Source of the DNA: Escherichia coli
GTDB lineage: Bacteria > Pseudomonadota > Gammaproteobacteria > Enterobacterales > Enterobacteriaceae
Strand: one strand, 5' to 3'
DNA: 64,000 bases
NCBI RefSeq assembly: GCF_017348835.2
Contig: NZ_CP071375.1
The notes below the pieces were generated by a model. That model was given only the letters and a program-made list of their open reading frames with translations. It was not told the DNA's origin and did no database searches. The position numbers and the translations under genes were made by a program. This document shows, in pieces, positions 17,895-29,228 of the stretch; position 1 is the first letter of the stretch, and every line of letters begins with the position of its first letter.

Positions 17895-20324
17895 GTGTCG
17901 TCGTTGCCCGTTGCTGCCGTCTTACCTGAATTACTTACCGCTCTCGATTGTGCGCCGCAGGTATTATTAAGTGCGCCGACCGGGGCCGGGAAATCAACCT
18001 GGCTGCCGCTGCAACTGCTGGCGCATCCCGGCATTAACGGGAAAATTATCCTGTTGGAGCCACGGCGTCTGGCGGCGCGTAACGTCGCGCAACGGCTGGC
18101 GGAGCTGCTTAACGAAAAGCCAGGCGATACCGTTGGCTACCGGATGCGTGCGCAAAACTGCGTCGGGCCGAATACCCGCCTGGAAGTGGTTACCGAAGGC
18201 GTGCTGACGCGGATGATCCAGCGTGACCCGGAGTTGAGCGGTGTTGGATTGGTGATCCTTGATGAATTTCATGAGCGTAGCTTGCAGGCGGATTTGGCGT
18301 TGGCGCTGTTACTCGATGTGCAACAAGGTCTGCGTGATGACCTTAAACTGCTGATTATGTCGGCTACGCTGGACAACGACCGCTTGCAACAAATGCTACC
18401 AGAAGCGCCCGTCGTCATCTCAGAAGGGCGCTCGTTTCCGGTTGAACGCCGTTATTTACCGCTGCCCGCCCATCAGCGTTTTGACGAAGCCGTCGCGGTT
18501 GCGACCGCCGAAATGCTGCGTCAGGAAAGTGGATCATTACTGTTATTTTTACCGGGCGTCGGAGAAATTCAGCGTGTGCAGGAACAACTGGCTTCGCGTA
18601 TCGGCAGTGATGTGTTGCTCTGCCCGCTGTATGGCGCGTTGTCGCTGAACGATCAGCGAAAAGCGATCCTCCCGGCACCGCAAGGGATGCGCAAAGTCGT
18701 GCTGGCGACCAATATTGCTGAAACCAGTTTAACTATCGAAGGTATTCGTCTGGTGGTGGATTGCGCCCAGGAAAGGGTGGCGCGTTTTGATCCGCGAACA
18801 GGGCTTACGCGACTAATTACTCAGCGAATCAGTCAGGCGTCGATGACGCAGCGTGCCGGGCGCGCCGGGCGTCTGGAGCCGGGTATCTGCCTGCATTTAA
18901 TCGCCAAGGAACAAGCAGAACGCGCCGCGGCGCAAAGTGAACCGGAAATATTACAAAGCGATCTTTCCGGTTTGCTGATGGAATTACTGCAATGGGGATG
19001 CAGCGATCCGGCGCAGATGAGCTGGCTGGATCAACCGCCAACGGTGAATCTACTGGCCGCGAAACGCCTGTTACGGATGCTGGGGGCGCTGGACGGTGAA
19101 CGGCTTAGTGCGCAGGGGCAAAAAATGGCAGCGCTGGGTAACGATCCGCGTTTAGCGGCAATGCTGGTTAGCGCAAAGAGCGACGACGAAGCTGCTACCG
19201 CGGCAAAAATTGCCGCCATTCTCGAAGAGCCGCCACGGATGGGCAATAGTGACCTGGGCGTGGTGTTTTCGCGCAATCAGCCAGCCTGGCAGCAACGTAG
19301 TCAGCAACTGTTAAAACGCTTAAACGTATACGGCGGTGAGGCAGACAGTTCGCTTATCGCGCTGCTACTTGCCGGGGCGTTTGCCGATCGCATTGCTCGC
19401 CGCCGTGGGCAAGATGGACGCTATCAACTGGCAAACGGCATGGGAGCGATGCTCGATGCCGACGACGCGCTAAGCCGCCACGAATGGTTGATCGCACCGT
19501 TATTATTGCAGGGCAGCGCCTCGCCGGATGCGCGGATTTTACTGGCGCTACCGGTCGATATTGATGAATTAGTGCGACGCTGTCCGCAGCTGGTGCAGCA
19601 ATCTGACACCGTGGAATGGGATGACGCGCAAGGTACGCTGAAAGCCTGGCGTCGGCTGCAAATCGGTCAGTTGACGGTGAAAGTGCAGCCGTTGGCGAAA
19701 CCGTCAGAAGACGAGTTGCATCAGGCGATGCTTAACGGCATCCGTGATAAAGGTTTAAGCGTGCTCAACTGGACGGCGGAAGCGGAACAGCTACGCTTGC
19801 GTTTGTTATGCGCCGGAAAGTGGTTGCCAGAATATGACTGGCCAGCGGTTGATGATGAAAGTTTGTTGGCGACGCTGGAAACGTGGCTGCTGCCACATAT
19901 GGCCGGTGTACATTCACTACGCGGCCTGAAATCACTCGACATTTATCAGGCACTACGCGGATTACTTGATTGGGGAATGCAGCAACGTCTGGATAGTGAA
20001 TTGCCTGCGCATTACACTGTGCCGACGGGAAGCCGGATCGCCATTCGTTATCATGAAGATAACCCGCCCGCGCTGGCGGTGAGAATGCAGGAGATGTTTG
20101 GTGAGGCCACCAATCCGACGATCGCTCAGGGGCGCGTGCCGCTGGTGCTGGAGTTGCTTTCCCCTGCCCAAAGGCCGCTGCAAATCACGCGTGATTTGGG
20201 GGCCTTCTGGAAAGGGGCGTATCGTGAGGTGCAAAAAGAGATGAAAGGGCGTTATCCCAAACACGTCTGGCCGGACGACCCGGCAAACACGGCACCGACG
20301 CGACGGACGAAAAAGTATTCGTAA
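17895..20324 (+). CDS. hrpB: ATP-dependent RNA helicase HrpB (DEAH-box)
   Basis: Walker A GAGKST and DEFH motifs; probable GTG start at 17895 (VSSLPVAAVLPELL...). The ORF track begins at the upstream ATG 17850. Confidence 0.9.
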   Translation: MSSLPVAAVLPELLTALDCAPQVLLSAPTGAGKSTWLPLQLLAHPGINGKIILLEPRRLAARNVAQRLAELLNEKPGDTVGYRMRAQNCVGPNTRLEVVTEGVLTRMIQRDPELSGVGLVILDEFHERSLQADLALALLLDVQQGLRDDLKLLIMSATLDNDRLQQMLPEAPVVISEGRSFPVERRYLPLPAHQRFDEAVAVATAEMLRQESGSLLLFLPGVGEIQRVQEQLASRIGSDVLLCPLYGALSLNDQRKAILPAPQGMRKVVLATNIAETSLTIEGIRLVVDCAQERVARFDPRTGLTRLITQRISQASMTQRAGRAGRLEPGICLHLIAKEQAERAAAQSEPEILQSDLSGLLMELLQWGCSDPAQMSWLDQPPTVNLLAAKRLLRMLGALDGERLSAQGQKMAALGNDPRLAAMLVSAKSDDEAATAAKIAAILEEPPRMGNSDLGVVFSRNQPAWQQRSQQLLKRLNVYGGEADSSLIALLLAGAFADRIARRRGQDGRYQLANGMGAMLDADDALSRHEWLIAPLLLQGSASPDARILLALPVDIDELVRRCPQLVQQSDTVEWDDAQGTLKAWRRLQIGQLTVKVQPLAKPSEDELHQAMLNGIRDKGLSVLNWTAEAEQLRLRLLCAGKWLPEYDWPAVDDESLLATLETWLLPHMAGVHSLRGLKSLDIYQALRGLLDWGMQQRLDSELPAHYTVPTGSRIAIRYHEDNPPALAVRMQEMFGEATNPTIAQGRVPLVLELLSPAQRPLQITRDLGAFWKGAYREVQKEMKGRYPKHVWPDDPANTAPTRRTKKYS

Positions 20325-20334
20325 GGTTGGTTTT

Positions 20335-20410
20335 CTCCCTCTCCCTGTGGGAGAGGGCCGGGGTGAGGGCATCAGCGCGTACGTTCACCCTCACCCTCAA
20401 GGGAGAGGGG
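20335..20410. repeat. GC-rich palindromic intergenic repeat (boxC-like) forming two or three stem-loops
   Basis: CCCTCTCCC-tgt-GGGAGAGGG (20337-20357); GGGTGAGGG...CCCTCACCC (20361-20396); GGGAGAGGG (20401-20409). The family name is from memory. Confidence 0.5.
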
Positions 20411-20507: not shown

Positions 20508-23042
20508 ATGGCCGGGAATGACCGCGAGCCAATTGGACGCAAAGGGAAACCGACGCGTCCGGTCAAACAAAAGGTAAGCCGTCGTCGTTACGAAGATGAC
20601 GATGATTACGACGATTATGATGACTATGAGGATGAAGAACCGATGCCGCGCAAAGGTAAGGGCAAAGGCAAAGGGCGTAAGCCTCGTGGCAAACGCGGCT
20701 GGCTATGGCTGCTGTTAAAACTGGCTATCGTTTTTGCCGTGCTGATCGCCATTTACGGCGTTTATCTCGATCAAAAAATTCGTAGCCGTATTGATGGCAA
20801 GGTCTGGCAACTGCCTGCGGCAGTTTATGGTCGAATGGTCAACCTTGAGCCAGACATGACCATCAGCAAGAACGAGATGGTGAAGCTGCTGGAGGCAACA
20901 CAGTATCGTCAGGTGTCGAAAATGACCCGTCCTGGCGAATTTACTGTGCAGGCTAACAGCATTGAGATGATCCGCCGTCCGTTTGATTTTCCGGACAGCA
21001 AAGAAGGGCAGGTGCGTGCGCGTCTGACCTTTGATGGCGATCATCTGGCGACGATCGTCAATATGGAGAACAACCGTCAGTTCGGTTTCTTCCGTCTTGA
21101 TCCGCGTCTGATCACCATGATCTCCTCACCAAACGGTGAGCAGCGTTTGTTTGTGCCGCGCAGTGGTTTCCCGGATTTGCTGGTGGATACTTTGCTGGCG
21201 ACAGAAGACCGTCATTTCTACGAGCATGATGGGATCAGTCTCTACTCAATCGGACGTGCGGTGCTGGCAAACCTGACCGCCGGACGCACGGTGCAGGGAG
21301 CGAGTACGCTGACGCAACAGCTGGTGAAAAACCTGTTCCTCTCCAGCGAGCGCTCTTACTGGCGTAAAGCGAATGAAGCCTACATGGCGCTGATCATGGA
21401 CGCGCGTTACAGCAAAGACCGTATTCTTGAGCTGTATATGAACGAGGTGTATCTCGGTCAGAGTGGCGACAACGAAATCCGTGGCTTCCCGCTGGCGAGC
21501 TTGTATTACTTTGGTCGCCCGGTAGAAGAATTGAGCCTCGATCAGCAGGCGCTGTTAGTCGGTATGGTGAAAGGAGCGTCCATCTACAACCCGTGGCGTA
21601 ACCCGAAACTGGCGCTGGAGCGACGTAATCTGGTACTGCGTCTGCTGCAACAGCAACAGATTATTGATCAAGAACTCTATGACATGTTGAGTGCGCGTTC
21701 GCTGGGTGTTCAGCCGCGCGGTGGGGTGATCTCTCCTCAGCCAGCCTTTATGCAACTGGTGCGTCAGGAGCTTCAGGCTAAATTAGGCGATAAGGTAAAA
21801 GATCTCTCCGGCGTGAAGATCTTCACTACCTTTGACTCGGTGGCCCAGGACGCGGCAGAAAAAGCCGCCGTGGAAGGCATTCCGGCACTGAAGAAACAGC
21901 GTAAGCTGAGCGATCTGGAAACCGCGATTGTGGTCGTCGACCGCTTTAGTGGTGAAGTTCGTGCGATGGTCGGAGGTTCTGAGCCGCAGTTTGCGGGCTA
22001 CAACCGTGCGATGCAGGCGCGTCGTTCGATTGGTTCCCTTGCAAAACCAGCGACTTATCTGACGGCCTTAAGCCAGCCGAAAATCTATCGTCTGAATACG
22101 TGGATTGCGGATGCGCCAATTGCGCTGCGTCAGCCGAATGGCCAGGTCTGGTCACCGCAGAATGATGACCGTCGTTATAGCGAAAGCGGCAGAGTGATGC
22201 TGGTGGATGCGTTGACCCGTTCGATGAACGTGCCGACGGTAAATCTGGGGATGGCGCTGGGGCTGCCTGCGGTTACGGATACCTGGATTAAACTGGGCGT
22301 ACCGAAAGATCAGTTGCATCCGGTTCCGGCAATGCTGCTGGGGGCGTTGAACTTAACGCCAATCGAAGTGGCGCAGGCATTCCAGACCATCGCCAGCGGT
22401 GGTAACCGTGCACCGCTTTCTGCGCTGCGTTCGGTAATCGCGGAAGATGGCAAAGTGCTGTATCAGAGCTTCCCGCAGGCGGAACGCGCTGTTCCGGCGC
22501 AGGCGGCGTATCTGACACTATGGACCATGCAGCAGGTTGTACAACGCGGTACGGGTCGTCAGCTTGGGGCGAAATACCCGAACCTGCATCTGGCAGGGAA
22601 AACAGGGACTACCAACAATAACGTAGATACCTGGTTTGCGGGCATTGACGGCAGTACGGTGACCATCACCTGGGTCGGCCGTGATAACAACCAGCCGACC
22701 AAACTGTATGGTGCCAGCGGGGCAATGTCGATTTATCAGCGTTATCTGGCAAACCAGACGCCAACGCCGCTGAATCTTGTTCCGCCAGAAGATATTGCAG
22801 ATATGGGCGTGGACTACGACGGCAACTTTGTTTGCAGCGGTGGCATGCGTGTCTTGCCGGTCTGGACCAGCGATCCGCAATCGCTGTGCCAGCAGAGTGA
22901 GATGCAGCAGCAGCCGTCAGGCAATCCGTTTGATCAGTCTTCTCAGCCGCAGCAACAGCCGCAACAGCAACCTGCTCAGCAAGAGCAGAAAGACAGCGAC
23001 GGTGTAGCCGGTTGGATCAAGGATATGTTTGGTAGTAATTAA
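20508..23042 (+). CDS. mrcB: Bifunctional penicillin-binding protein 1B (transglycosylase/transpeptidase)
   Basis: 844 aa from [18 protein letters not shown]...; charged N-terminal region, transglycosylase and transpeptidase regions, Q-rich C-terminus. Confidence 0.95.
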
Positions 23043-23261: not shown

Positions 23262-25511
23262 ATGGCGCGTTCCAAAACTGCTCAGCCAAAACACTCACTG
23301 CGTAAAATCGCAGTTGTAGTAGCCACAGCGGTTAGCGGCATGTCTGTTTATGCACAGGCAGCGGTTGAACCGAAAGAAGACACTATCACCGTTACCGCTG
23401 CACCTGCGCCGCAAGAAAGCGCATGGGGGCCTGCTGCAACTATTGCGGCGCGACAGTCAGCTACCGGCACTAAAACCGATACGCCGATTCAAAAAGTGCC
23501 ACAGTCTATTTCTGTTGTGACCGCCGAAGAGATGGCGCTGCATCAGCCGAAGTCGGTAAAAGAAGCGCTTAGCTACACTCCTGGCGTTGCCGTGGGAACT
23601 CGTGGCGCATCCAACACTTACGATTACCTGATCATCCGCGGATTTGCCGCTGACGGCCAAAGCCAGAACAACTATCTGAATGGCCTGAAGATGCAGGGCA
23701 ACTTCTATAACGATGCGGTTATTGACCCATATATGCTGGAGCGCGCTGAAATCATGCGTGGCCCGGTTTCCGTGCTGTATGGGAAAAGCAGCCCAGGTGG
23801 CCTGTTGAACATGGTCAGCAAGCGCCCGACCACTGAACCGTTGAAAGAAGTTCAGTTTAAGGCCGGTACTGACAGCCTGTTCCAGACCGGTTTTGACTTC
23901 AGCGATGCGCTGGATGATGACGGCGTTTACTCTTATCGTCTGACCGGTCTTGCGCGCTCTGCCAATGCCCAGCAAAAGGGCGCGGAAGAGCAGCGTTATG
24001 CCATTGCGCCAGCGTTCACCTGGCGTCCGGACGATAAAACCAATTTCACCTTCCTCTCTTACTTCCAGAACGAGCCGGAAACCGGTTATTACGGCTGGTT
24101 GCCGAAAGAGGGAACCGTTGAGCCGCTGCCGAACGGTAAGCGTCTGCCGACAGACTTTAACGAAGGGGCGAAGAACAACACCTATTCTCGTAATGAGAAG
24201 ATGATTGGCTATAGCTTCGACCACGAATTTAACGACACCTTTACCGTACGTCAGAACCTTCGCTTTGCGCAAAATAAAGTTTCGCAAAAGAGCGTATATG
24301 GCTACGGCATGTGTTCAGATCCTCTCTATTCCTCAAACCCCTCTTCGAGTCCATGTGCCAACGTGCCGCAGTCTCAATGGGGCCATACACTGACTCGTCA
24401 GTACGTTATCGATAATGAGAAGTTAGAAAACTTCTCTGTTGATACTCAGTTGCAAAGCAAATTCGCAACCGGTTCAGTGGATCACACTCTGCTGACTGGC
24501 GTTGACTTTATGCGTATGCGTAATGACATCGACTCCTGGTTCGGATATGCCGGTTCAGTTGCACCATCTGATATCTATAATTTAGACCGTAGTGACTTTG
24601 ATTTTGGCGCTCACCCAAATCCGTCTGGTCCATACCGCGTTCTGCTGAAACAGAAACAAACCGGTCTGTATGTTCAGGATCAGGCGCAGTGGGATAAAGT
24701 GCTGGTTACGCTTGGCGGTCGCTATGACTGGGCCGATCAGTCATCTTTCAACCGTGATTACGGTAATAAATCCGATCGCGATGATAAACAGTTCACCTGG
24801 CGTGGCGGTGTTAACTATCTGTTCGACAACGGCGTAACGCCTTATTTCAGCTACAGTGAATCGTTTGAACCCGCTTCGCAGACCGATGCAAACGGCGATC
24901 TGTTTGCACCTTCGAAAGGCAAACAGTATGAAGTCGGCGTGAAATATGTGCCAGAAGATCGCCCAATTGTGGTGACTGGCGCACTGTATCAGCTTACCAA
25001 AACTAATAACCTGATGGCGGATCCGAACGGTTCACTGTTCTCGGTTGAAGGCGGTGAGATTCGTGCGCGTGGCGTAGAGCTGGAAGCGAAAGCGGCACTA
25101 TCGGCGAGTGTTAACTTAGTTGGTTCTTACACCTACACCGACGCGGAATACACCACTGACACCAACTACAAAGGCAATACGCCGGCACAGGTGCCAAAAC
25201 ACATGGCTTCGCTGTGGGCTGACTATACCTTCTTTGACGGTCCGCTTTCAGGTCTGACGCTGGGCACCGGTGGTCGTTATACTGGCTCCAGCTATGGTGA
25301 TCCGGCTAACTCCTTTAAAGTGGGAAGTTATACGGTCGTGGATGCGTTAGTGCGTTATGATCTGGCGCGAGTCGGCATGGCTGGCTCCAACGTGGCGCTG
25401 CATGTTAACAACCTGTTCGATCGTGAATACGTCGCCAGCTGCTTTAACACTTATGGCTGCTTCTGGGGCGCAGAACGTCAGGTCGTTGCAACCGCAACCT
25501 TCCGTTTCTAA
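23262..25511 (+). CDS. fhuA: Ferrichrome outer-membrane transporter (TonB-dependent receptor)
   Basis: 749-aa ORF; signal peptide, TonB box (DTITVTAAP), C-terminal ...ATATFRF. Confidence 0.95.
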   Translation: MARSKTAQPKHSLRKIAVVVATAVSGMSVYAQAAVEPKEDTITVTAAPAPQESAWGPAATIAARQSATGTKTDTPIQKVPQSISVVTAEEMALHQPKSVKEALSYTPGVAVGTRGASNTYDYLIIRGFAADGQSQNNYLNGLKMQGNFYNDAVIDPYMLERAEIMRGPVSVLYGKSSPGGLLNMVSKRPTTEPLKEVQFKAGTDSLFQTGFDFSDALDDDGVYSYRLTGLARSANAQQKGAEEQRYAIAPAFTWRPDDKTNFTFLSYFQNEPETGYYGWLPKEGTVEPLPNGKRLPTDFNEGAKNNTYSRNEKMIGYSFDHEFNDTFTVRQNLRFAQNKVSQKSVYGYGMCSDPLYSSNPSSSPCANVPQSQWGHTLTRQYVIDNEKLENFSVDTQLQSKFATGSVDHTLLTGVDFMRMRNDIDSWFGYAGSVAPSDIYNLDRSDFDFGAHPNPSGPYRVLLKQKQTGLYVQDQAQWDKVLVTLGGRYDWADQSSFNRDYGNKSDRDDKQFTWRGGVNYLFDNGVTPYFSYSESFEPASQTDANGDLFAPSKGKQYEVGVKYVPEDRPIVVTGALYQLTKTNNLMADPNGSLFSVEGGEIRARGVELEAKAALSASVNLVGSYTYTDAEYTTDTNYKGNTPAQVPKHMASLWADYTFFDGPLSGLTLGTGGRYTGSSYGDPANSFKVGSYTVVDALVRYDLARVGMAGSNVALHVNNLFDREYVASCFNTYGCFWGAERQVVATATFRF

Positions 25512-25561: not shown

Positions 25562-26359
25562 ATGCAGGAATACACGAATCATTCCGATACCACTTTTGCA
25601 CTGCGTAATATCTCCTTTCGTGTGCCAGGGCGCACGCTTTTGCATCCGCTGTCGTTAACCTTTCCTGCCGGAAAAGTGACTGGTTTGATTGGTCACAACG
25701 GTTCTGGTAAATCCACGCTGTTAAAAATGTTGGGCCGTCATCAGCCGCCGTCAGAAGGTGAAATTCTTCTTGATGCCCAGCCGCTGGAAAGCTGGAGTAG
25801 CAAAGCATTCGCCCGCAAAGTGGCTTATTTGCCGCAGCAGCTTCCTCCGGCAGAAGGGATGACCGTGCGTGAACTGGTGGCGATTGGTCGTTACCCGTGG
25901 CATGGCGCGCTGGGGCGCTTTGGTGCGGCAGATCGCGAAAAAGTTGAGGAAGCTATCTCGCTGGTTGGCTTAAAACCGCTGGCGCATCGGCTGGTCGATA
26001 GTCTCTCTGGCGGTGAGCGTCAGCGGGCGTGGATCGCCATGCTGGTGGCGCAGGATAGCCGTTGTCTGTTGCTCGACGAACCGACCTCGGCGTTGGATAT
26101 CGCCCACCAGGTTGATGTGCTGGCGCTGGTGCACCGTTTAAGTCAGGAACGTGGTCTGACGGTCATTGCCGTGCTGCACGATATCAATATGGCGGCACGC
26201 TACTGTGATTATCTGGTCGCCCTGCGCGGCGGTGAAATGATTGCTCAGGGAACGCCTGCGGAAATTATGCGCGGCGAAACCCTCGAAATGATTTATGGCA
26301 TCCCGATGGGTATTTTGCCGCATCCGGCGGGTGCTGCACCTGTGAGTTTTGTTTATTGA
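25562..26359 (+). CDS. fhuC: Ferric hydroxamate ABC transporter ATP-binding protein
   Basis: 265 aa from MQEYTNHSDTTFALRNISF...; Walker A GHNGSGKST; signature LSGGERQRAWIA. Confidence 0.95.
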   Translation: MQEYTNHSDTTFALRNISFRVPGRTLLHPLSLTFPAGKVTGLIGHNGSGKSTLLKMLGRHQPPSEGEILLDAQPLESWSSKAFARKVAYLPQQLPPAEGMTVRELVAIGRYPWHGALGRFGAADREKVEEAISLVGLKPLAHRLVDSLSGGERQRAWIAMLVAQDSRCLLLDEPTSALDIAHQVDVLALVHRLSQERGLTVIAVLHDINMAARYCDYLVALRGGEMIAQGTPAEIMRGETLEMIYGIPMGILPHPAGAAPVSFVY

Positions 26360-27249
26360 TGAGCGGCTTACCTCTTATTTCGCGCCGTCGACTGTTAACG
26401 GCGATGGCGCTTTCTCCGTTGTTATGGCAGATGAATGCCGCCCACGCGGCGGCTATTGATCCCAATCGTATTGTGGCGCTGGAGTGGTTGCCGGTGGAAT
26501 TACTGCTGGCGCTCGGCATCGTGCCTTATGGCGTGGCGGACACCATCAACTATCGCCTGTGGGTTAGCGAACCACCGTTACTTGAATCGGTGATTGACGT
26601 CGGTTTGCGCACAGAACCTAACCTTGAACTGCTGACCGAAATGAAACCGTCGTTTATGGTCTGGTCGGCAGGATATGGCCCTTCACCAGAAATGCTGGCT
26701 CGTATTGCGCCGGGGCGCGGATTTAACTTCAGCGACGGCAAACAGCCGCTGGCGATGGCGCGTAAATCACTGACGGAAATGGCAGATTTACTTAACCTGC
26801 AAAGCGCAGCGGAAACGCATTTAGCGCAATACGAAGACTTTATCCGCAGCATGAAACCCCGCTTTGTGAAGCGTGGTGCACGCCCGTTATTGCTGACGAC
26901 GCTTATCGATCCGCGCCATATGTTGGTCTTCGGGCCAAACAGCTTGTTCCAGGAAATTCTCGATGAGTACGGCATCCCAAATGCCTGGCAAGGGGAAACC
27001 AACTTCTGGGGCAGCACCGCCGTCAGTATCGATCGTCTGGCGGCGTATAAAGATGTTGATGTGCTCTGTTTTGATCACGACAACAGCAAAGACATGGATG
27101 CGCTAATGGCAACCCCGCTGTGGCAGGCCATGCCGTTTGTCCGTACAGGGCGCTTTCAGCGCGTACCTGCAGTCTGGTTTTATGGTGCGACGCTCTCGGC
27201 AATGCACTTTGTGCGTATTCTGGATAACGCCATCGGAGGTAAAGCGTGA
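26356..27249 (+). CDS. fhuD: Ferric hydroxamate periplasmic binding protein
   Basis: 297-aa ORF with a signal peptide; overlaps the fhuC stop and the fhuB start. Confidence 0.9.
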   Translation: MMSGLPLISRRRLLTAMALSPLLWQMNAAHAAAIDPNRIVALEWLPVELLLALGIVPYGVADTINYRLWVSEPPLLESVIDVGLRTEPNLELLTEMKPSFMVWSAGYGPSPEMLARIAPGRGFNFSDGKQPLAMARKSLTEMADLLNLQSAAETHLAQYEDFIRSMKPRFVKRGARPLLLTTLIDPRHMLVFGPNSLFQEILDEYGIPNAWQGETNFWGSTAVSIDRLAAYKDVDVLCFDHDNSKDMDALMATPLWQAMPFVRTGRFQRVPAVWFYGATLSAMHFVRILDNAIGGKA

Positions 27250-29228
27250 GTAAACGAATTGCGCTTTTCCCGGCGTTATTGCTGGCGCTGTTAGTGATTG
27301 TCGCTACGGCGCTCACCTGGATGAACTTCTCGCAGGCGCTGCCGCGTAGCCAGTGGGCGCAGGCTGCCTGGTCGCCGGATATTGACGTCATCGAGCAGAT
27401 GATTTTTCACTACAGCTTGTTGCCGCGTCTGGCGATTTCGCTGCTGGTGGGCGCGGGCCTGGGGCTGGTGGGCGTGCTGTTTCAGCAAGTGCTGCGTAAC
27501 CCGCTGGCGGAACCGACGACGTTGGGCGTTGCTACAGGCGCGCAACTGGGGATTACCGTCACGACGCTCTGGGCGATCCCTGGTGCGATGGCGAGCCAGT
27601 TTGCTGCGCTGGCAGGGGCTTGTGTTGTTGGCTTAATTGTCTTTGGCGTCGCGTGGGGGAAACGGCTGTCGCCGGTAACGCTGATTCTCGCGGGGCTGGT
27701 AGTGAGCCTTTATTGTGGGGCAATCAATCAATTACTGGTTATCTTCCATCATGACCAGTTGCAAAGCATGTTTCTGTGGAGCACTGGAACGCTGACGCAA
27801 ACCGACTGGGGCGGCGTTGAGCGTTTATGGCCGCAGCTGCTGGGCGGCGTGATGCTGACGTTATTGCTACTTCGCCCGTTAACCCTGATGGGGCTTGATG
27901 ATGGCGTGGCGCGCAATCTCGGGCTGGCCTTGTCGCTCGCGCGTCTGGCGGCGCTGTCGCTGGCGATTGTCATCAGTGCGCTGCTGGTGAATGCGGTAGG
28001 GATTATCGGCTTTATCGGGTTGTTCGCGCCGCTGCTGGCAAAAATGCTGGGGGCGCGGCGTCTGCTGCCACGGTTGATGCTGGCGTCGCTGATTGGGGCG
28101 CTGATCCTCTGGCTTTCCGATCAAATCATCCTCTGGCTGACTCGTGTGTGGATGGAAGTGTCCACCGGTTCGGTCACTGCGTTGATCGGTGCGCCGCTGC
28201 TACTGTGGCTGTTGCCGCGTTTACGCAGCATTAGCGCGCCGGATATGAAGGTCAACGATCGTGTCGCGGCTGAACGCCAACATGTGCTGGCGTTTGCCCT
28301 CGCGGGCGGCGTGCTGCTGTTGATGGCTGTGGTGGTGGCGCTGTCGTTTGGTCGTGATGCGCACGGCTGGACGTGGGCGAGCGGGGCGTTGCTCGATGAT
28401 TTAATGCCCTGGCGCTGGCCGCGAATTATGGCGGCGCTGTTTGCGGGCGTCATGCTGGCGGTGGCGGGCTGTATTATTCAGCGGCTGACCGGAAACCCGA
28501 TGGCAAGCCCGGAAGTGCTGGGGATTAGCTCCGGCGCGGCGTTTGGCGTGGTGTTAATGCTGTTTCTGGTACCGGGTAATGCCTTTGGCTGGCTGTTACC
28601 CGCAGGCAGTCTCGGGGCGGCGGTGACGCTGTTGATCATTATGATCGCCGCCGGACGCGGTGGATTTTCCCCACACCGTATGTTACTGGCGGGGATGGCG
28701 TTAAGTACCGCATTCACCATGCTTTTGATGATGTTGCAGGCGAGCGGTGACCCGCGAATGGCGCAAGTGCTGACCTGGATTTCCGGTTCGACCTACAACG
28801 CGACCGATGCGCAGGTCTGGCGCACCGGAATTGTGATGGTGATTTTGCTGGCGATTACCCCGCTGTGCCGCCGCTGGCTGACCATTTTACCGCTGGGTGG
28901 TGATACCGCCCGAGCCGTAGGAATGGCGCTGACGCCGACGCGAATTGCGCTGCTGCTGTTAGCGGCTTGCCTGACGGCGACCGCGACGATGACTATTGGA
29001 CCGTTGAGTTTTGTTGGTTTAATGGCACCGCATATTGCGCGGATGATGGGTTTTCGACGGACGATGCCACACATCGTAATTTCGGCGCTGGTGGGTGGTT
29101 TACTGCTGGTATTCGCTGACTGGTGTGGGCGGATGGTGCTGTTTCCATTCCAGATCCCGGCGGGGCTGCTGTCGACCTTTATCGGCGCGCCATATTTTAT
29201 CTATTTGTTGAGAAAGCAGAGCCGTTAA
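27246..29228 (+). CDS. fhuB: Ferric hydroxamate ABC transporter permease (fused double permease)
   Basis: 660-aa highly hydrophobic ORF with an internally duplicated permease architecture. Confidence 0.95.
   Translation: MSKRIALFPALLLALLVIVATALTWMNFSQALPRSQWAQAAWSPDIDVIEQMIFHYSLLPRLAISLLVGAGLGLVGVLFQQVLRNPLAEPTTLGVATGAQLGITVTTLWAIPGAMASQFAALAGACVVGLIVFGVAWGKRLSPVTLILAGLVVSLYCGAINQLLVIFHHDQLQSMFLWSTGTLTQTDWGGVERLWPQLLGGVMLTLLLLRPLTLMGLDDGVARNLGLALSLARLAALSLAIVISALLVNAVGIIGFIGLFAPLLAKMLGARRLLPRLMLASLIGALILWLSDQIILWLTRVWMEVSTGSVTALIGAPLLLWLLPRLRSISAPDMKVNDRVAAERQHVLAFALAGGVLLLMAVVVALSFGRDAHGWTWASGALLDDLMPWRWPRIMAALFAGVMLAVAGCIIQRLTGNPMASPEVLGISSGAAFGVVLMLFLVPGNAFGWLLPAGSLGAAVTLLIIMIAAGRGGFSPHRMLLAGMALSTAFTMLLMMLQASGDPRMAQVLTWISGSTYNATDAQVWRTGIVMVILLAITPLCRRWLTILPLGGDTARAVGMALTPTRIALLLLAACLTATATMTIGPLSFVGLMAPHIARMMGFRRTMPHIVISALVGGLLLVFADWCGRMVLFPFQIPAGLLSTFIGAPYFIYLLRKQSR

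Follow-up and report, generated by a model that had tools for sequence, protein, structure and literature searches.

The fhuA gene in a stretch of 64,000 nucleotides from Escherichia coli (contig NZ_CP071375.1 of assembly GCF_017348835.2; the whole stretch is called here the window) encodes an intact ferrichrome transporter whose outward surface is not that of the FhuA protein of E. coli K-12. The protein probably carries an old, alternative type of receptor surface, called here type B (the K-12 surface being type A), on a transporter that works, and the alternative has probably been kept by pressure from phages and bacteriocins. FhuA is the classic receptor for phages T1, T5, and phi80, for many recent siphophages, and for colicin M, microcin J25, and albomycin, and to our knowledge it is the K-12 allele that has been used in nearly all structural and genetic work on the protein.

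Outward surface and mosaic structure of fhuA

Judged from its sequence, the gene is the functional fhuA of an ordinary E. coli chromosome and encodes a TonB-dependent outer-membrane ferrichrome transporter, with uptake itself a prediction. The coding sequence (23262-25511, plus strand), as given by the list of open reading frames (ORFs) and by protein profiles, specifies a precursor of 749 amino acids with a 33-residue signal peptide, the same as in K-12. An initial annotation of the window had named this ORF FhuA and quoted two peptides from it, and both occur exactly in the translation. The protein scores 1452.4 bits, over residues 1-749, against the NCBIfam equivalog NF007465 ("ferrichrome porin FhuA"; cut-off 803), contains the Pfam domains Plug and TonB_dep_Rec (the barrel), and matches all PDB chains of E. 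coli FhuA obtained by crystallography or cryo-electron microscopy (E = 0). An AlphaFold2 model built with 102 homologs has 22 strands, a predicted local distance difference test score (pLDDT) of 90.5, and a predicted template modeling (pTM) score of 0.89, and it fits the ferrichrome-bound structure 1BY5 with a template modeling (TM) score of 0.98 and a root-mean-square deviation of 1.7 Å. The gene matches the fhuA annotated in E. coli PE164 at 100% identity, and it occupies the same slot as in the annotated K-12 and PE164 loci, first in fhuACDB, with mrcB upstream and fhuCDB downstream. Its protein occurs unchanged on 164 public contigs, and each neighbor one residue away is found on 1000 contigs or more, always under the name E. 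coli FhuA.

One might nonetheless suppose that the gene is decaying or that it encodes a paralogous TonB-dependent receptor, as its DNA is only 87% identical to K-12 fhuA over its whole length. Nothing else speaks for this, and it has virtually no chance of being right: it is refuted by the intact frame of 749 codons, the equivalog score far above cut-off, the slot before fhuCDB, the identical proteins on so many contigs, the confident model that matches solved structures, and an overall ratio of replacement to silent substitution rates (dN/dS) of about 0.1.

The protein was aligned to K-12 FhuA (the JM109 locus and PDB chains 8A60 and 1BY3); 673 positions are identical and 77 differ, a protein identity of about 90%. 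The differences were mapped using strand boundaries taken from the AlphaFold2 model, which agree with two published sets of loop definitions. One, in Table S1 of PMC10373560, places loops L3 at 247-273, L4 at 318-339, L5 at 394-419, L8 at 552-558, L10 at 640-654, and L11 at 689-701; the other (PMC9586334) places extracellular loop (EL) 7 at 501-516 (Glu501-Ser516) and EL8 at 546-564. Extracellular loops hold 43 of the 77 differences (16 in L5, 15 in L4, 7 in L7, 2 in L6, and 1 each in L2, L8, and L9). The others lie in the outer parts of strands (18), mid-strand (7), in the inner part (4), in a periplasmic turn (1, D369S), and in the plug (4), so that loops and outer strand ends together account for 61. 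The enrichment in loops is pronounced by Fisher's test, whether calculated for the mature protein (p = 8e-11) or for the divergent block described below (p = 3e-13).

L4 (precursor residues 351-375; 24312-24386, plus strand) has 15 differences, including an insertion of three residues. Its disulfide loop, CSDPLYSSNPSSSPC, runs from Cys351 to Cys365 (codons 24312-24314 and 24354-24356) and encloses 13 residues, compared to 10 in the K-12 loop CSDPANAYSKQC (Cys318-Cys329). The initial annotation had stated that the K-12 loop is the shorter one, which is correct; the spacing of 15 that it gave for the window holds as the inclusive length of the segment but not as the separation of the cysteines, which is 14. 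The sequence expected of a K-12 L4 (CSDPANAYSKQC...APADKGH, with its 10-residue loop) is absent, as 15 of 22 positions differ and PADKGH is replaced by PQSQWGH. L5 (precursor 428-458; 24543-24635, plus strand) has 16 differences, including a deletion of one residue, and it departs from K-12 at 16 of 26 positions. Both loops fall within the region 24290-24660 singled out by that annotation, which corresponds to precursor residues 343-466 and extends from the end of strand 7 through L4, strand 8, turn 4, strand 9, and L5 into the first part of strand 10. Farther on, the L6 tip of the strand 11-12 hairpin (precursor 494-505, K-12 mature 459-470; 24741-24776, plus strand) has 8 differences. The proportion of replacement sites that differ (pN) is here 0.47, and its ratio to the same proportion for silent sites (pS), 0.78, is the highest in the gene. 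L7 (precursor 537-550, K-12 mature 501-516; 24870-24911, plus strand) differs at 7 of 16 positions, with D509N at its tip, and the tip of L8 (K-12 mature 552-558; 25020-25040, plus strand) has changed from DPEGSFF to DPNGSLF (E554N and F557L).

Elsewhere the protein is conserved. Mature residues 1-76, 112-182, 209-281, and 601-714 contain no differences. The second disulfide (Cys692-Cys698 in K-12 numbering) is retained, and L3, L10, and L11 are unchanged. The TonB box DTITV (about 23379-23393, plus strand) is the same as in K-12, within about 80 identical residues at the start of the mature protein, and the plug domain (mature residues 1-160; 23361-23840, plus strand) has four conservative changes, S77A, H89Y, E98D, and L111M (pN of 0.009). 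The individual residues that contact ferrichrome are those of the crystal structures published in 1998. The aromatic residues of the ferrichrome site, Y313, Y315, W390, and F391, are conserved, as are Y244 and W246 of L3 and the plug apices. Ferrichrome is contacted by L3, L11, and strands 7 and 9 (PMC10373560); K344Q and several outer residues of strands 7-9 near the binding pocket differ from K-12.

Set beside K-12 FhuA (P06971; structures 1BY3, 1BY5, 2FCP, 8A8C, and 8B14), then, the window protein has the same gene slot, the same signal peptide, and the same fold of plug and 22-stranded barrel, with an identical TonB box, L3, L10, L11, and C-terminal third, and it differs in an L4 loop longer by three residues, an L5 shorter by one, and a changed L6 tip, L7, and L8 tip. 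Only the outward surface of an intact orthologous transporter has changed. This bears out the initial claim that the plug, TonB box, and C-terminal strands are conserved and the surface loops divergent: alignment and structural mapping show that the segments in question are not identical to K-12 and that their differences are extracellular. By its sequence the allele is that of a FhuA ortholog, not that of a K-12-type receptor surface.

The gene is a recombination mosaic, with 5' and 3' ends and flanks that belong to the E. coli clonal frame and a center of about 1 kb whose silent divergence from K-12 is that seen between enterobacterial genera. DNA identity to K-12 is 96-100% in mrcB, in the fhuA promoter and first 240 or so nucleotides, in the last 260 or so nucleotides, and in fhuCDB (except for short patches). 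Between the conserved ends it is 84-94% at 23500-24050, 99% at 24050-24200, and 50-85% at 24200-25200, with the deepest dips, to 50-67%, at 24250-24400 and 24500-24640. A sliding comparison of pS with K-12 follows the same course, and the boundaries are sharp in both profiles: pS is about 0 up to mature residue 50 or so, 0.3-0.55 at 50-230, 0.08 at 230-275, 0.45-0.87 at 283-600, and at most 0.1 beyond 610. The first divergent tract (23508-24050, plus strand; mature residues 50-230, approximately), in which pN is at most 0.034, is bounded by near-identical DNA, which points to a less distant source and to a second event of recombination, independent of the first. The second tract is the deeply divergent core (24207-25166, plus strand; K-12 mature residues 283-600, approximately), which extends from strand 6/7 to strand 17 and includes L4 to L9. 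Over residues 334-640, the comparison with K-12 gives a pS of 0.66, a saturated level that corresponds to a dS of about 1.55, and a dN of 0.154. A scale is provided by nearby fhuC, whose pS is 0.11 relative to K-12, about 0.2 relative to other Escherichia, and 0.5-0.7 relative to Citrobacter, Salmonella, and Enterobacter. By this scale, the silent sites of the two E. coli alleles have diverged as much as those of separate genera, the value for the core being equal to that between E. coli and Citrobacter or Enterobacter. The operon fhuACDB is listed as recombination-hot in Salmonella.

Two loop types across genera and within E. coli

Sequences like the divergent core were sought across genera with residues 334-640 as the query and one genome per species, which yielded 80 loci. 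Type B is defined here by two motifs, C[ST]D.[LMI]Y in L4, where 13 or 16 residues separate the cysteines, and WFGYAGSV..SDIYNLDR in L5, and the window protein matches both. The species-representative sequences divide into 30 of type B and 23 of type A (53 in all), and the length of the cysteine loop is strictly tied to this division, at 10 residues for A and either 13 or 16 for B. The minimum distance between the types among the 53 sequences, 0.155, is about equal to the mean distance within a type.

Loops L4 and L5 nearly letter for letter like those of the window are found in Citrobacter amalonaticus, C. sedlakii, C. youngae, C. braakii, Enterobacter vonholyi, Phytobacter ursingii, Buttiauxella warmboldiae, and Klebsiella indica, as well as in members of Leclercia, Lelliottia, Silvania, Intestinirhabdus, Kosakonia, and Atlantibacter. 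The K-12-like loops of type A are found in Escherichia whittamii, several Enterobacter species, Salmonella enterica arizonae, Leclercia adecarboxylata, Citrobacter NCU1 and R56, Phytobacter massiliensis, Buttiauxella massiliensis, and others. Both types are present in seven genera among the species surveyed. In type-B proteins of other genera (e.g., those of C. amalonaticus, Kosakonia sacchari, and Atlantibacter hermannii), the L4 sequence GMCSDPLYSSNP.SSPCA.VPQSQWGHTLTRQYVID is nearly shared with the window and the L5 sequence WFGYAGSVAPSDIYNLDRSDFDFGAHP.PSG is nearly invariant; the loop lengths are the same, and amino-acid identity over residues 334-640 is 82-89%. The difference lies in the silent sites, which are saturated relative to the window (pS of 0.58-0.76). 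The loops form old, discrete types that have been conserved, with strong purifying selection acting on them inside each type.

Divergence within type B tracks the relatedness of the species and runs parallel to that of fhuC. Between the window and Escherichia sp. E1V33, pS of the core is 0.30 and dN 0.034, with a pS of 0.23 for fhuC; between the window and type-B sequences of Citrobacter and Enterobacter, the core has a pS of 0.58-0.71 and a dN of about 0.08, with a pS of 0.52-0.61 for fhuC in the Citrobacter carriers; and for Kosakonia and Atlantibacter, dN rises to about 0.12. These values also bear on the idea that the type-B core was recently imported from another genus such as Citrobacter. 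The best matches to the core protein outside Escherichia are indeed in Citrobacter and Enterobacter, at 85-89% amino-acid identity, but a recent import is very improbable, and largely refuted, given that pS is saturated with respect to every non-Escherichia type-B sequence sampled and equals that of fhuC, that the closest relative is from another species of Escherichia, and that the block is already present in about 1095 complete E. coli genomes, with internal DNA divergence of up to 10-20%. By their sequences, the type-B proteins sampled outside Escherichia are orthologs or old relatives rather than recent donors.

That count comes from a megablast scan of 5426 complete E. coli genomes with the 1051-nucleotide divergent block. 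The block is present at 99% identity or more in 53 genomes, at 95-99% in 571, at 90-95% in 265, and at 80-90% in 206, so that the type-B family (at least 80% identity) comprises 1095 of the 5426, or 20%. The K-12 type, at 60-80% identity to the block, is found in 3668 (68%), and the 663 genomes with no match, about 12%, represent more divergent types. Carriers of the block at 99% identity or more include Shiga-toxin strains of serotype O145:H28, the enteroaggregative strain 042, IAI39, and CE10. Phylogroup E holds both types, B in O145:H28 and A in O157:H7. The window allele is neither rare nor new, being already in RefSeq in reference strains, and to that extent the initial description of it as distinctive does not hold: its class is found in about a fifth of complete genomes, and its loops are common to many genera.

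Within E. coli there are at least five deep classes of FhuA, with about 62 N-terminal and about 15 C-terminal residues identical in all five. Besides the K-12 class (747 amino acids, type A) and that of the window (749, type B), there is a class of 752 amino acids, in strains DA61218 and S1-ISR-02-A, with the L5-L8 of the window and a different, longer L4 that has 16 residues between the cysteines; a class of 729, in GPEC1035, 73% identical and with the L4 disulfide loop essentially deleted; and a class of 731, in the enteropathogenic E. coli (EPEC) strain E2348/69, 62% identical. The 729- and 731-residue classes together account for roughly 560-660 of the 5426 complete genomes. All three lie at the same locus as the window gene and are built on the same mosaic principle. 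Between the window and DA61218, essentially only L4 differs (pN of 0.235), with near-identical flanks (pS of 0.03-0.13, S1-ISR-02-A included), which indicates that L4 is a small, swappable cassette. The 13- and 16-residue forms of L4 occur also in other genera (Kosakonia S29 and Enterobacteriaceae UBA3516) and in Escherichia sp. E1V33. Between the type-B alleles of the window and of strain U12A there are about 83 silent differences and 3 replacements, none of the latter in L4, L5, L7, or L8.

Recognition by phages and bacteriocins

The loops that differ most between the types are those on which phages depend. T1 requires L4, whereas L8 is needed by T5, by SO1-like phages, and by phi80, which depends partly on L4 as well (PMC10373560). 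In the complex of FhuA with pb5, EL4, EL5, and EL8 contribute 8, 8, and 7 of the 27 hydrogen bonds, and in superinfection exclusion by Llp, EL7 and EL8 are folded inward (PMC9586334). Y325 and F557 have been highlighted as exposed, mobile contacts, and F557 has been proposed as a key contact. Among the residues singled out in the literature, the window protein carries the substitutions Y325S, F557L, E554N, and D509N. An altered recognition by T1, phi80, T5, colicin M, and microcin J25 is plausible on these grounds.

The reading that we consider probable is as follows. Type B would retain ferrichrome uptake, since it keeps the signal peptide, the TonB box, the plug, L3, L11, the aromatic residues, and the C-terminal barrel, while agents adapted to type A would recognize it differently or not at all, with the strongest effect on L4-dependent phages such as T1. 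The two types would constitute a balanced polymorphism of long standing that homologous recombination reshuffles, with lineages able to switch type through exchange anchored in the conserved ends of the gene. Both types would be maintained by negative frequency-dependent pressure from T1-, phi80-, T5-, and SO1-like phages, colicin M, and microcin J25.

The divergent core may instead be a neutral passenger, an old or foreign tract brought in by recombination, with relaxed loops that neither affect recognition nor are subject to balancing selection. This would fit a pN/pS below 1 in every loop, the reported robustness of T5-FhuA binding to loop deletions and to some changes in the interface, and the high recombination of fhuA in Salmonella noted above. 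It is unlikely, however, as drifting loops would not stay near-identical in Citrobacter, Kosakonia, Atlantibacter, and E. coli while silent divergence went to saturation, nor would one expect to find no replacement in L4, L5, L7, or L8 against the roughly 83 silent differences that separate two E. coli alleles of type B. The presence of both types in at least seven genera and the concentration of the differences on the surface that phages contact likewise speak against it.

Or perhaps selection does maintain the types but through a different agent: host antibodies, or the range of substrates (other hydroxamates, albomycin-like antibiotics). FhuA is exposed on the surface and carries several hydroxamates and antibiotics; K344Q and the other changes in the outer parts of strands 7-9 are near the binding pocket; and the types occur also in environmental and plant-associated genera, where siderophores are highly diverse and pressure from antibodies is unlikely. 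The last point cuts both ways, since types so widespread in genera that are not associated with hosts argue against selection by antibodies. As for substrates, the elements that bind ferrichrome (Y244 and W246 of L3, L11, and the aromatics of strands 7 and 9) are conserved, and the most altered loops, L4, L5, L7, and L8, are the mapped determinants for phages, colicin, and microcin. Such an agent seems quite unlikely.

Several considerations weigh against maintenance by phages and bacteriocins as well. A pN/pS greater than 1 was sought in the loops relative to K-12 and not found, the values being 0.3-0.8 with a maximum of 0.78 in the L6 tip, although, with silent sites saturated, the ratio carries no information at such depth. 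Saturated pS, moreover, does not separate an ancestral polymorphism from old transfers between genera, and the survey of genera covers one genome per species and 80 loci. Binding of T5 is reported to tolerate deletion of single loops other than L8 and some substitutions in the interface, so type B may still bind T5. The resistance of wild strains often has other causes, and O-antigen or capsule may outweigh FhuA type in determining real host range.

OmpC, OmpA, OmpF, LamB, and BtuB also combine a conserved core with variable outward loops that serve as docking sites for phages and colicins, and diversifying selection and recombination have been reported for them. The variation in FhuA differs in that it is not a continuum but a few discrete types conserved across genera. 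These discrete surfaces may predate the split of Escherichia, Citrobacter, and Enterobacter. We entertain the possibility, while stopping short of calling it probable, that they form a trans-genus balanced polymorphism with a small number of surfaces (A, B with a 13- or 16-residue L4, and loop-less), each preserved by purifying selection and followed by a separate guild of phages and bacteriocins. In that case, typing of FhuA would predict, throughout the Enterobacteriaceae, which hosts are open to FhuA-dependent phages and to colicin M, and discrete types common to several genera would make a clean case for long-term balancing selection on a bacterial receptor.

The full-text literature searched yielded no description of natural classes of E. 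coli fhuA alleles, of their selection or effects on host range, of discrete FhuA surfaces common to several genera, or of a phenotype for the window allele, the one related item being the recombination-hot fhuACDB of Salmonella, and natural variation of FhuA is absent from PMC12940499, PMC13035648, PMC6499177, PMC12629751, and PMC13419801. The allele itself must be considered already known, because it is in RefSeq in reference strains and because variation in the loops of outer-membrane proteins that serve as phage receptors is an established theme. The practical value is that of a reminder, with a simple typing scheme based on the L4 and L5 motifs, and not that of a new system. About a third of sequenced E. 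coli, including O145:H28, 042, and many extraintestinal strains, have a receptor surface other than that of K-12, and so predictions of host range, phage cocktails, and bacteriocin designs that are based on K-12 may not transfer to them.

Surroundings of the gene

The genes fhuC, fhuD, and fhuB (25562-29228, plus strand) follow fhuA in the same operon for uptake of ferric hydroxamates and supply its inner-membrane and periplasmic parts, in synteny with K-12 and PE164. Within genes that are otherwise 97-100% identical to K-12 there are patches of 91-95% identity at 25650-25800 (fhuC), 26500-26640 (fhuD), and 20900-21800 (mrcB), which look like small recombination tracts flanking fhuA. Positions 3262-45511 of the window, 42,250 of 42,250 nucleotides, are identical without gaps to the chromosome of E. 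coli PE164, an isolate from pig diarrhea and blood from Nanjing, which places the window in that strain or a near-clone of it.

The order of genes in the region is standard: panBC, a yad-type fimbrial operon, folK-pcnB-dksA, hrpB, mrcB, fhuACDB, hemL, clcA, and so on to rpsB. In the window and in K-12, mrcB lies directly 5' of fhuA; in U12A and EPEC E2348/69 that place is taken by an operon encoding a fimbrial usher and fimbrial proteins, so that the mrcB-fhuA junction varies between lineages. The intergenic region between hrpB and mrcB (20262-20400) has a 12-nucleotide insertion or deletion in the alignment to K-12. On the minus strand, ORFs lie antisense to fhuA (23457-24287, 276 amino acids) and to mrcB (22518-22880, 120 amino acids); these, like similar ones inside fhuA, are entries of the mechanical list of ORFs and are not taken as genes.

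Three matches to fhuA are located on plasmids. In the K-12 derivative NEB 5-alpha (NZ_CP017100.1), fhuA is interrupted by an IS4-like element, presumably an engineered or selected marker of T1 resistance in commercial cloning strains.

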